DNA of 18,000 bases from NCBI GenBank assembly GCA_964016885.1, contig CAXHJY010001350.1, forward strand, positions 1-18,000, in the 5' to 3' direction. The DNA comes from Eledone cirrhosa. Lineage: Eukaryota. How positions within the stretch are numbered: position 1 is the stretch's first letter; each line of letters starts with the position of its first letter. Positions 1,272 to 15,524 of the stretch are shown one piece after another. A model generated the notes under the pieces. That model made no database searches and had not been told where the DNA came from. It saw nothing but the letters and a program-made list of their open reading frames with translations. The position numbers and the translations under genes were made by a program.

Positions 1272-1315
<44 letters not shown>

Positions 1316-1324
1316 AGATAGATA
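305..1324 (+). repeat. Composite minisatellite array, segment 1 (9 monomers; ~64-bp core + (AG)n/(GATA)n tail)
   Basis: Core AAATGGTGTCCCCCCAAAATGTATATAC recurs at ~312, 429, 541, 669, 785, 901, 987, 1102, 1237, each followed by (AG)n and (except the last) ATAGCAAGCTACAGACACATGTCTCTCTC. Confidence 0.97.
1315..1324 (+). repeat. Candidate target-site duplication, left copy (AAGATAGATA)
   Basis: Identical 10-mer at 1315-1324 and 6581-6590 directly flanking the element; the AA variant is rare in the array's GATA patches. Low complexity makes the exact length uncertain. Confidence 0.65.
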
Positions 1325-1331
1325 TATTTCT

Positions 1332-1337
1332 TTTATT
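1332..1337 (-). terminator. AATAAA polyadenylation-type signal at element 3' end
   Basis: Minus strand reads ...GCCCTAGTGGCAAATAAAAGAAA then microsatellite; same position in subfamily B. Confidence 0.7.
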
Positions 1338-1584
1338 TGCCACTAGGGCATCAAAAGTGGGACAAGTACAAAGGGGGGAGTTTACACAAAAAGGCGTCCT
1401 CAATAAGGAGGAGGCAATAACAAAATATAAAAATAAAATAAGATATAACAAAAAATAAATTTTTAACAAAATCCTCAATAGAGAGGAGGCGCCTTGGGGG
1501 GTCGCACACACCCCCGAAAAAGGTGTGCAACCCTTCTCAGGAGCACAGAGAAGGGGTGCTCCCTTGGTCTTTCATCTTCCTCAC

Positions 1585-1995
1585 CTATAGTCTGATGTAG
1601 AGTGAAGGCCCATTCACACGGGCCATTCTCGCCACTTTCACCCATCTTTCATAGAAACGGCTGGGGTGCAGCACCTCTCTCTCCATCCTGATCCTTCTTC
1701 CGAAATGATATCGGAAGAAACGGACCAGTTGTTGGCCAGAGAGAAAGGTGCCCGACCTCAGTCCTTTCAGACGCGTCCACCATACAACCTCTTTCGCCAT
1801 GGCTATTACGCACAGAAACACCGCCTCTGCTTCATCTTTGAAGGGGGGAGGCGGCTTGATCATTACAATAGACTCGGTGGTCAACCGGATCGGTCCCACC
1901 CTTGACAGCAGTTGTTCGACATAGCCCCACAGATCGGCTACGCCCGAGCAGTGTACTAATGCGTGTGCAACGGTTTCCTCGTCGCAGCCTACGCA
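1585..1995 (-). pseudogene. Out-of-frame ORF2 C-terminal fragment with zinc-knuckle remnant
   Basis: Extending ORF 1585..1899 upstream by hand gives (CV)GCDEETVAHALVHCSGVADLWGYVEQLLSRVGPIRL...AKEVVWWTR...SLYIRL*, the typical ETxxHxxxxC..W and AKxxIWxxR end of L1/Tx1 ORF2; it is in a different frame from the RT. Confidence 0.85.
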
Positions 1996-4567
1996 TCAAC
2001 AGCCACGGCATACCCAGCCCTCCTTTCGAAGGGTGCTGGCAGCAGATGGATCTCCTCACCATGGGAGGCCGCTTCTTCCAGAGGAACTGGAAGAGCATGC
2101 GTTCCATGATGGTGATCTTTTCCTTGGGGCAAGGCACGACGGTCAGGCGGTAGCAGATGACGGACGCTATGTAAGCGTTCGTCACCTCCGCCCGACCTTT
2201 CAGTGATAGTTTGCACTTGGCCCACTTCTGGGTCAGCGCAAACACCCTGCTCGTCACCTCGCCCCAATTCTTCTCCACCTGGAGGTCCGGTCCGAACCAG
2301 ACCCCGAGCAGCTTCACCGGGCCCTCCGTCCACCGCCCGACGACACCGTCTAACGGCATCGGTTTGCCCCTCCACGTTCCGAGTTGCAAACCGACTGACT
2401 TGTCCCGGTTCAGCCTAGCCCCCGTCAGCCTTTCGTATTCCTCCAGTAGGGTGGCGATCGCCCCGATTTCCGAGGCGTCCGCCACCATTACTGTTACGTC
2501 GTCGGCATAGGCCGAGACCGCTTTGTGCAATCCCGGTTCCAGGGGTATGCCCCGCAGCAACTCCAACTTCCGCAGCAGTGGCTCGAGAGTCAATACGTAC
2601 AGAAGGGAGGAGAGGGGGCACCCCTGTCTGATGGACCGGGTGATTTGAAACGGCTCCGAGAGGTAGCCGTTTACTTTAATCCTAGAGTAGATGTTGCCAC
2701 TGTGCATGGCAGAAATCCAGCCCCTGAAAACGGGTCCGAAGCCCGCCGCCGCTAGCACCGCTTCCAGGTAACCATGGTCGACCCTATCGAACGCCTTAGA
2801 TTGATCCAAGTTGATCAGGGCCCCACCAAAGCCGGGTTCGTTTCCAACCCTCTCTATGATGTATCGCATGAGGTGGAGGTTGTCGTGAATGGACCTGGAC
2901 GGGATAGCGCATGTCTGCGCATCTCCCACCAGGTTGCCCACGACAAGCGCCAACCTCTTCGCCAACACCTTGGCCAAAATCTGTAACTCTGCATTCAGCA
3001 GAGTTATGGGCCTAAAGTTACTTAAGTCGTCCCCCTTGCTCTCGTCCTTCCTCACTAGCGTGACCACGCCCTTGGTCACAGAACAGGGAATTCTCCCGTT
3101 CTGTTGCCAGTTGCAATAGACAGCCTCGAGGAGTTCGGAGAACAAGACCGGCATAGCTAAATAAAGTTCGTATGGTAGACCATCGAGACCCGGAGATTTG
3201 CGTCTGCTGCATTGGCTGAGCGCTTCCCCGATTTCAGTGGCTGTGATTGGCCTTTCGCAGCACTCCGCTTCGCCGCTCGAAAGACGCGGTAGACCGTCGA
3301 GGTATGGACCGAAGTCCACATCCCCGTCCGGCCCCCCGCCCCCTCCGAACAGTCGAGCAAAGTGCCTTTGAAAGGCCTCGCACATCCGCTCAGGTTCAAG
3401 GATCACCCGTCCATCCTGGTCTCGCAAAGACCGAATGGTGGATTTAATCCCACTCTTGGCTTCTGTCACGCGGGCCCAGCTAACAGCTTTGGTCCCCTCG
3501 TTTCCTAAAGCACGTATTTTACTTCGGACAACGCAGCCTTCGTGCTTCGCGTCAAAGAACTGGCTCAACGCCGTTCTAGCCGCTAACACTCTGGCTACGT
3601 CTCCGCTCCTAATCGCCTCTTCTAGTTTATCTGTTAACTCCCTTTCCTTCCTATTTCTATTCGCCGCTAGTTCCTTACTGTAACCTATCGAACTTACTCT
3701 AATCTCTCTCTTTAGAGATACCCACCACCTACTGTTGACAATCGCTCCCGTCAACCGCATCTTAACTAAGCTACTAATCCGGTTCCTGTAATCTTTCTTT
3801 GCCGGCAAGGACAAGTTCATCTTCCAGTAACCGGGACCCTGTCTATGCGTTCTATCAAGGTTGACCACGCAGGTCACTAATTTGTGATCTGAATAGCCAA
3901 CCATGATCAATTCTGGACAACTAAATACGTCCCTATCCTTACTCCTAACCAAAAACCTATCTAGGTACGATCTAGATTGTCCACTGCGGTTTGCCCAGGT
4001 CCAGGTTGGCGCAGTTGGACAATCTAGTCGAAATCTATCGACCAGGTCGAATCGATCGAGTAACCCCTTGAGGCTGCTACACCCCCCTCTATCGGGACAT
4101 GCCCCTGCATAGTCCCAACGCGCATCTAGGATTCCATTCCAGTCCCCCACTAAAAGCAGGGAACGCGACGTTCCTAGAAAAGTCTCCAGACGCTGGAAGA
4201 AGTCGGCTCTTTCAGCCCCGAAGGGGGCATAAAGACCGACCAGTCTGAAAGCCCCGCCTTCACCGCCTCCGACGTCCAGCACCAGTATTCGACCCCCCGG
4301 GTCCGAGTGAACAATCTGTACGTCGAGAGCCAGACGTTTATCCAGCAGTACGGCAACTCCCCCCCCCCCGCCTCCGGGTTGACAGAGAGATGCGTGCATC
4401 TCAAAGTCATCGAAGGCGGGAGCCAGCTGTCGCACGCTGCTGATCCGACTCTCGCAAACAACCATCACATCTATACTTCGTGACCTGAGGTCACTTAGTA
4501 GCTTTGCTTGCTTCCAAGCTGAGCCCAGGCCACGCGCGTTCAAACAGCCAACTCTTAATTGATCTAT
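1832..4567 (-). CDS. ORF2: AP-endonuclease + reverse transcriptase (native frame lost after ~1990; no ATG)
   Basis: EN motifs CLNARG, VCESR, GDWN (4136-4147), YLDRFLV, SDH (3884-3892); RT motifs PGLDG, FRPITLLN, LDQSKAFDRVDH, RQGCPLS, YADD (2498-2509), LLGV, then GGLG. The last ~50 aa of the 903-aa track ORF are read-through in the wrong frame. Confidence 0.93.
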   Translation of the reverse strand: MDQLRVGCLNARGLGSAWKQAKLLSDLRSRSIDVMVVCESRISSVRQLAPAFDDFEMHASLCQPGGGGGGVAVLLDKRLALDVQIVHSDPGGRILVLDVGGGEGGAFRLVGLYAPFGAERADFFQRLETFLGTSRSLLLVGDWNGILDARWDYAGACPDRGGCSSLKGLLDRFDLVDRFRLDCPTAPTWTWANRSGQSRSYLDRFLVRSKDRDVFSCPELIMVGYSDHKLVTCVVNLDRTHRQGPGYWKMNLSLPAKKDYRNRISSLVKMRLTGAIVNSRWWVSLKREIRVSSIGYSKELAANRNRKERELTDKLEEAIRSGDVARVLAARTALSQFFDAKHEGCVVRSKIRALGNEGTKAVSWARVTEAKSGIKSTIRSLRDQDGRVILEPERMCEAFQRHFARLFGGGGGPDGDVDFGPYLDGLPRLSSGEAECCERPITATEIGEALSQCSRRKSPGLDGLPYELYLAMPVLFSELLEAVYCNWQQNGRIPCSVTKGVVTLVRKDESKGDDLSNFRPITLLNAELQILAKVLAKRLALVVGNLVGDAQTCAIPSRSIHDNLHLMRYIIERVGNEPGFGGALINLDQSKAFDRVDHGYLEAVLAAAGFGPVFRGWISAMHSGNIYSRIKVNGYLSEPFQITRSIRQGCPLSSLLYVLTLEPLLRKLELLRGIPLEPGLHKAVSAYADDVTVMVADASEIGAIATLLEEYERLTGARLNRDKSVGLQLGTWRGKPMPLDGVVGRWTEGPVKLLGVWFGPDLQVEKNWGEVTSRVFALTQKWAKCKLSLKGRAEVTNAYIASVICYRLTVVPCPKEKITIMERMLFQFLWKKRPPMVRRSICCQHPSKGGLGMPWLLMRRLRRGNRCTRISTLLGRSRSVGLCRTTAVKGGTDPVDHRVYCNDQAASPLQR

Positions 4568-14557: not shown

Positions 14558-14901
14558 AGAGATAGCTACAGACACATATCTCTCTCTATATATAAATGGT
14601 GTCCCCCCAAAATGTATATACAGAGAGAGAGAGAGAGAGAGAGATATAGCAAGCTACAGACACATGTCTCTCTCTATATATAAATGGTGACCCACCAAAA
14701 TGTATATACAGAGAGAGAGAGAGAGAGAGCGAGAGAGACAGAGAGATAGCAAGCTACAGACACATGTCTCTCTCTATATATAAATGGTGTCCCCCCAAAA
14801 TGTATATACAGAGAGAGAGAGAGCGAGAGAGAGAGATAGGATTCTACAGACACATGTCTCTCTCTATATATAAATGGTGTCCCCCCAAAATGTATATACA
14901 T

Positions 14902-14934
<33 letters not shown>

Positions 14935-15004
14935 TAGCAAGCTACAGACACATATCTCTCTCTATATATAAATGGTGTCCCCCCAAAATGTATATACAGA
15001 GAGA

Positions 15005-15052
<48 letters not shown>

Positions 15053-15056
15053 TAGA
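10761..15056 (+). repeat. Composite minisatellite array, segment 3
   Basis: Same monomer; diagnostic variants recur in the same order as in segments 1, 2 and 4. Confidence 0.97.
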
Positions 15057-15506
15057 TTTCTTTATTAGCCACAAGGGCGCAACAAGAAAGGGGACAATAC
15101 AAAGACATGCCGGGGATTTTACATACAGTCGTGTAAAAAATATAAAAACAAACAATTTCAACAATCGAAATCCCCAATAGGGGGGAGGCGCCACAAATGG
15201 GTTGTTTAATACCCCGCCGATAGAACAACCCTCAACTCGAGGAGCGTGTTGTGCAAGTGCTCCTTTCTTCCTTTTGCTCTCTTCCTCAACCTACAGGCTT
15301 ATAAACAGAGAAGGCCCAATCACTCGGGCCATTTTCACTTCATTCACCCACCTTTCAGTAAATTTACTGGGGTGCAGTGCCTCTCTCTCAACCCTGATCC
15401 TCCTTCTAAAGTGATACTTAAAGAAGGGAATCAATTGTTGTCCGGAGAGAAAGGCATCTGTCCTCAGTCCTCTCAACCGAGTCCACCATATAACTTCTTT
15501 CACCAT
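15057..15506 (-). mobile_element. 5'-truncated Tx1-like retrotransposon, subfamily B, copy 2 (450 bp)
   Basis: Same ends as copy 1 at offset 4746; three substitutions seen (15219, 15390, 15399); AATAAA at 15061-15066. Confidence 0.92.
15291..15506 (-). pseudogene. ORF2 C-terminal remnant (71 aa), same protein as 10545-10760
   Basis: Identical translation in the ORF track. Confidence 0.9.
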
Positions 15507-15524
15507 AGATAGAGATAGAGATAG

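Follow-up and report, generated by a model that had tools for sequence, protein, structure and literature searches.

Two subfamilies of a Tx1-like LINE inserted in GATA patches of an Eledone cirrhosa satellite array point to a likely (GATA)n target preference

An 18,000-nt stretch of the Eledone cirrhosa genome (assembly GCA_964016885.1, contig CAXHJY010001350.1, positions 1 to 18,000 of the forward strand), hereafter called the window, carries a satellite array broken up by three minus-strand inserts. These inserts, A, B1, and B2, represent two subfamilies of a Tx1-like long interspersed element (LINE) with an apurinic/apyrimidinic endonuclease (APE), and they likely prefer a (GATA)n/(TCTA)n target. 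That a preference for GATA is real, whether it is imposed by the endonuclease or by RNA pairing, we consider quite probable. The case is built on GATA flanks at both sides of the insertions, on target-site duplications (TSDs), on an empty paralogue of one insertion site, and on two more tandem junctions found in sequencing reads. The feature is real, and the central idea of an earlier sequence-only reading, which proposed a GATA-targeting lineage, is likely right. The array and its inserts are as follows:

305..18000, plus strand: satellite array with a ~64-bp core and a variable (GA)n tail, organized in higher-order repeats, which hosts the insertions
1325..6580, minus strand: element A, a near full-length, defective, Tx1-like APE-type LINE with two open reading frames (ORFs)
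10311..10760, minus strand: element B1, a 5'-truncated copy of the second subfamily with the last 71 ORF2 codons and the 3' untranslated region (UTR)
15057..15506, minus strand: element B2, arisen from B1's insertion through duplication of a satellite block, with 3 differences between the two; TSD 15048-15056 / 15505-15513

The coordinates and junctions first noted for these elements match the window sequence. A and B are separate subfamilies and separate events, as had been claimed, because only 50 of 71 amino acids are identical at the ORF2 end and nucleotide identity is 76% over 227 nt. Just 3 of 450 nt distinguish B1 from B2; the two have a common truncation point and are surrounded by matching runs of monomers, and they therefore represent one insertion that was copied with the satellite. 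Three independent insertions are thereby ruled out, which leaves two events in the window.

In element sense, the 3' junction of A reads AATAAAAGAAATA|TATCTATC and that of both B1 and B2 reads AATAAAGAAA|TCTATCTATC. Both subfamilies are antisense to the GA strand and have (TCTA)n (element sense) at the 5' as well as the 3' flank, which confirms that A and B entered GATA patches in the same orientation. The TSD of A is 10 bp long, and that of B is 5-9 bp depending on where the element ends are placed:

1315..1324, plus strand: 3'-side copy of the A TSD, AAGATAGATA, in a GATA patch after (GA)14
6581..6590, plus strand: 5'-side copy of the A TSD, AAGATAGATA, after which come a further GATA and (GA)5TAGCAA
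10302..10310, plus strand: 3'-side copy of the B1 TSD, ATAGATAGA, with its partner at 10759-10767
16843..16934, plus strand: empty paralogue of the monomer that hosts A, with a GATA patch at ~16897-16918 and no element

Ordinary GATA-patch tails are restored once an element and one TSD copy are removed. The A duplication contains a variant base of the patch, and the empty paralogue at 16843 shares GATAGATAGATA(GA)5TAGCAA, the right half of A's site. The tail signature of that site recurs in three other monomers, two of which have a GATA patch without an element. Because such empty paralogous monomers carry the patch, it is very likely older than the A insertion. The GATA found beyond the TSD at both sides of both insertions, taken with the empty paralogue, upholds the view that the repeat is a target rather than a mere tail. 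The signature of target-primed reverse transcription is also present, in the form of TSDs, 5' truncation of B with a 2-nt AT microhomology at the B1 5' junction, and a depth that greatly exceeds, at the 3' end, that of the 5' end.

Patches of this kind are a minority feature of the satellite, as had been stated: at least two tandem GATA units occur in 15 of 101 uninterrupted monomers, in which they account for 2.2% of bases and 4.5% of tail bases. Their share of the empty satellite is 3.5% when the three reconstructed sites and a margin of ±2 nt are counted. At this share, two hits in patches are expected by chance with p=1.2e-3, or with p of ~6e-4 if the same orientation is also required, the test being post hoc and computed on satellite monomers that are duplicated and hence not independent.

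The same composition bears on a second reading, according to which the target is Kibi-like, either (TC)n/(GA)n itself or the (GA)n-GATA boundary, and the GATA patches are incidental neighbors. Each of the two window nicks is separated by ~8-12 nt from where a (GA)14-17 run ends, and (TC)n is the target of Kibi (PMC4494074, PMC3812793). However, neither of the two insertions is in pure (GA)n, in keeping with the initial observation, despite the fact that pure (GA)n of at least five units makes up 32% of the empty satellite versus 3.5% for the patches. In addition, the two spacers recovered from reads (see below) are both AGAT-based and lack (GA)n. We regard this boundary reading as quite unlikely.

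Copies outside the window were sought by mapping on A four of the 21 listed sequencing runs, among which there was no RNA run; those with small shares were left out, and 6574-6612 at the A 5' junction was skipped as repeat. The family is abundant and mostly 5'-truncated under three organism labels, with 16,462 contigs placed on A in run X1 and 55,238 in run X6. In a run of restriction-site-associated DNA (RAD) from a different sample (X19), reads that begin at the SphI site (2095) yield two joints that lead from a truncation point to a 3' end. One joins 2170 to 1318 via AGATAGATAGACAGACAA (105 reads, the shorter side spanning 45 letters), and the other joins 2191 to 1316 via AGATAGATAGAT (78 reads). 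Judged from the reads, these joints represent two more loci, where head-to-tail pairs of copies are apparently split only by GATA repeat. In these pairs the 5' flank of the truncated copy is (ATCT)n and the end of the next copy is in A's register; one spacer is a degenerate GATA/GACA tract. Among the 12 of 129 joints listed, these two reach a 3' end, and an AGAT spacer is present in both.

GATA is thus found at four of four informative junction sets, of which two are preselected tandem joints and which together are not an unbiased genome sample. For comparison, a family has been called target-specific when >20% of its copies are flanked by one sequence type (PMC4494074). The proposal that the lineage uses this satellite as its habitat is not borne out, given the abundance of the family under three organism labels and the absence of the satellite core from either RAD junction. 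At position 1331 in organism C, the B-type 3' end, which lacks one T, accounts for 17,642 of 20,871 contig depth. On this basis the 3'-end motif appears to be common to subfamilies and species.

A reading without any target preference would hold that an abundant (TCTA)n-tailed LINE in a microsatellite-rich genome hit, or survived in, patches twice, and that the tandem reads are template jumps. Its strengths are the very high abundance of the family, as counted in runs X1 and X6, together with small n and a post hoc test. A tail, however, accounts neither for the empty paralogue nor for the 5'-side GATA that lies past the TSD, and the degenerate RAD spacer resembles an old genomic repeat more than a fresh tail. 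We hold this reading to be decidedly improbable.

Several points nevertheless weigh against a GATA-targeting lineage. In the satellite, a paralogue of A's host monomer, at 12222, has no GATA patch, and tandem GATA is inseparable from any GATA as the preferred feature, since 54 of 193 GATA starts are tandem and two of two would then be tandem with p of ~0.08. In the reads, the tandem joints are preselected because only joints returning to the reference appear, the joint at 2170 rests on a single read start, and tandem joints could come from template jumping between RNAs with (UAUC)n tails. No microsatellite was seen among the 24 of 4508 loose ends listed, which resemble diverged element sequence. 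Relatives at 42-45% ORF2 identity, described below, do not use GATA. The argument is limited to four junction sets rather than a genome-wide sample.

The sequence of events that we propose is a form of target-primed reverse transcription. The endonuclease would nick the GA-rich strand at GATA^GATA, and the freed ...GATA-3'OH would prime on the 3' end of the RNA just past AATAAA(A)GAAA, possibly by pairing with UAUC. The 3' junctions of A and B would be in one register if the B end is read GAAATC, homologous to the GAAATA of A. A second nick 5-10 nt away would then produce the TSD. Because insertion would keep GATA on both sides, later copies could land beside earlier ones and create head-to-tail pairs; tandem insertion around a duplicated site has been reported for the Tx1-mobilized SINEU-3 (PMC4494074). 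The satellite would be one among many GATA-bearing sites, and afterwards B would have been duplicated with its satellite block while A decayed.

Which component selects the site is a separate matter. Insertion at specific targets is frequent among Tx1-clade elements, with the endonuclease as its chief determinant (PMC4494074), and Tx1L-EN nicks its own site almost exclusively in vitro (PMC1950540). By likeness to Tx1L-EN, we favor the endonuclease as the probable chooser of the site. The main rival is pairing between primer and RNA, in which the GATA preference is real but a relaxed nick is extended only where its 3' end anneals to an RNA end of (UAUC)n, in the manner of L1's snap-velcro model. 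Consistent with pairing, A and B have no poly(A) tail and run directly into TATC repeats, and the A-type end GAAATATATCT is seen again at two other loci. Moreover, pairing contributes to L1 target choice (PMC4014453), and the 3' repeats of RTE elements have been linked to TSD starts (PMC13295347). The A duplication, however, retains the patch's variant base right to the border of the element, which argues that little or no TCTA tail was added, and the role assigned to the endonuclease in Tx1-clade specificity also counts against pairing. We consider RNA pairing unlikely to be what selects the site.

Beyond the junctions, the anatomy of A supports the assignment of these elements. Its parts are:

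1325..1584, minus strand: 3' UTR, ending in AATAAAAGAAATA without a poly(A) tail
1585..1995, minus strand: C-terminal piece of ORF2 (P0002), in a frame that differs from the rest after an internal deletion; 63% identity to P0005 782-912
1988..4630, minus strand: main part of ORF2, with the APE endonuclease (EN) at ~3866-4555 and the reverse transcriptase (RT) at 2297-3031, YADD
4564..6379, minus strand: ORF1, split by a frameshift near 5950-6000, containing a CCHC knuckle (5503-5553) and a C-terminal part that is long and rich in Pro/Thr
6380..6580, minus strand: 5' UTR, opening with 7 nt (GATAGAG) that match target-like sequence in reverse complement

The ORF2 product gives Pfam matches above cut-off to Exo_endo_phos (1.3e-11) and RVT_1 (3.6e-24), and its alignment with human L1 ORF2p (E 4.7e-49) runs from one end to the other. 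In this alignment the EN positions N, E, Y, D, N, D and SDH correspond to those of human L1 EN, and YADD is kept. The five best PDB matches are all L1 ORF2p, ahead of R2. From this domain content, the elements are classified as APE non-LTR retrotransposons of the L1 group. Elements of the Tx1 clade have an ORF1 with a CCHC zinc knuckle and an ORF2 with a C-terminal zinc-binding (zf-RVT) domain. The zf-CCHC match of A ORF1 is weak (E 0.002, 18.5 bits, under the 20.8 cut-off); the ORF1 of a relative passes at 21.3, and A ORF1 is 28% identical to a relative's ORF1. Atlas look-alikes of A ORF1 are CCHC proteins at 0.92. The zf-RVT domain is found with E 8.6e-9 in P0005, the closest relative with 71% identity, and the matching region is partly lost in A. 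The label Tx1-like accordingly denotes a suggested affinity drawn from anatomy rather than from a tree. A link of ZCCHC3-like domains to Tx1 ORF1 was without support in the literature searched, PMC9004415 included.

Compared with P0005, A has lost ~147 ORF2 codons at ~1988, which shifts the frame. This deletion and the ORF1 frameshift rule out A as an intact active copy, and the element is dead. ORF2 lacks an ATG ahead of the EN domain, where its open frame shares 67 nt with the end of ORF1 (4556-4630, minus strand). The missing ATG could reflect decay, or else AUG-independent or frameshift initiation. The first 7 nt of A create an inverted repeat, TCTATC-AA-GATAGA, that spans the 5' junction (6574-6590); these nucleotides are either the genuine start of the element or were added by fold-back at integration.

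The host array was parsed into 104 monomers in the window. It starts at ~305, where unique AT-rich DNA and (TA)n give way to it. Variant monomers occur in runs that are found more than once (e.g., 568-1263, 11263-12222, and 16003-16843) with local deletions and duplications, and the B1-to-B2 spacing of 4746 bp reflects this higher-order repeat. Rfam gave no match in the window plus seven loci, and none in seven array-end loci.

The nearest relatives with DNA context, 38 of 50 loci (L006-L042, L046), have 42-45% ORF2 identity. These sister loci sit in contigs of an ‘Arenicella’ metagenome-assembled genome (MAG), a bacterial bin, and they are flanked by microsatellite-rich, animal-like DNA; the contigs are likely host contamination. 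In contigs of this MAG (G001, e.g., C9, C19, and C5), intact Tx1-like LINEs of 6.4-6.8 kb are strung head to tail in arrays, with 66 unit matches and up to ~11 per contig. The units are joined by a ~14-18 bp non-microsatellite spacer, which is present again in the DNA bordering one end of an array, in the manner of a target site that was duplicated again and again. The sister lineage is thus a candidate site-specific array former. It resembles A in its two-ORF layout, CCHC knuckle in ORF1, AATAAAG 3' end, and tandem copies, and it differs from A and B in its long arrays of intact units and its junctions without a GATA tract. Tandem GATA was matched 73 times in the sister loci, 72 times at one EN-domain coding position and never at a junction. 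Stereotyped junctions, as judged from these contigs, seem to run in the wider lineage, and the GATA target does not seem to extend to 42% identity.

More distant searches added little. Metagenome contigs contain five relative loci at 24-38% identity, and repeat flanks are absent at the two of these that were scanned. Viral contigs gave no match for the 3'-end pattern and no relative by protein. None of seven candidate short relatives of the ORF2 C terminus served as a readout of the 5' flank, and no flank-derived repeat peptides were present among 272 stored proteins.

If the preference is confirmed, (GATA)n would be an added target unit among microsatellite-specific LINEs, whose targeting mechanism was described as not well understood in a 2013 review (PMC3812793), and it would help explain the clustering of LINEs and GATA tracts in the host. 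The class of mechanism is already established, and the gain would be incremental in that respect. Of the ORF2-end residues compared between A and B, 30% differ, but the two share site and register, whereas the junction of the sister lineage differs. Together they offer a natural comparison for how a target is changed by an APE endonuclease or by an RNA 3' end. A bolder proposal, which we put forward tentatively and hold to be possible though doubtful, is that this is an undescribed, ancient, very high-copy Tx1-like lineage in several related animals, with diverged subfamilies that all home to (GATA)n via a GATA^GATA endonuclease. It would be the first GATA-specific LINE, stacking in tandem and spreading with GATA tracts, and the sister lineage would have switched to a non-microsatellite target and built 90-kb arrays.

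No (GATA)n/(TCTA)n-specific LINE is described in the literature searched, which left out most subscription papers and Repbase Reports. L1-Tx1 families are reported in Octopus vulgaris (PMC13282606), and L1-Tx1 elements are abundant in cephalopods (PMC8967140), with no targets given in the available portions of these two sources. The microsatellite targets attributed to the Tx1 clade are (TC)n, (TTC)n, (TTCC)n, and (TTTC)n (PMC4494074, PMC3812793), and those of further LINEs include (TG)n, (TAA)n, and (AC)n. GATA, TCTA, and ATAG have no occurrence in the main text of PMC4494074.

Human L1 ORF2p (PDB 8uw3) resembles A in its colinear EN and RT, in its catalytic positions, and in a hairpin-loop segment that is equally long in the alignment. 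Unlike human L1, A has an ORF1 CCHC knuckle, a short 3' UTR without poly(A), and a microsatellite rather than a TTTT/AA target. The closest parallels in target habit are the teleost Tx1-clade LINEs Kibi (KibiDr1/2, KibiFr1, and KibiTn1; (TC)n) and Koshi ((TTC)n), which likewise have APE and RT, two ORFs, and a location in purine/pyrimidine-asymmetric microsatellites (PMC4494074, PMC3812793). The element-sense strand of A and B carries the pyrimidine-rich unit of the microsatellite. Neither window event hit pure (TC)n or (TTC)n, the two being in TCTA patches adjoining (TC)n, so that, unlike Kibi, A and B have (TCTA)n as their target unit and leave unused the pure (TC)n on hand. The element therefore works like Kibi, to which it is likened by target habit alone, and it is not filed as Kibi because its insertions are outside the defining (TC)n target. 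Crocodilian families such as Tx1-1_Crp, Tx1-5_Crp, and Tx1-2_AMi also have a tetranucleotide target, with a preference for (TTCC)n or (TTTC)n, and show the target unit drifting within the Kibi/Koshi group (PMC4494074). A and B differ from these crocodilian elements in both repeat unit and host.

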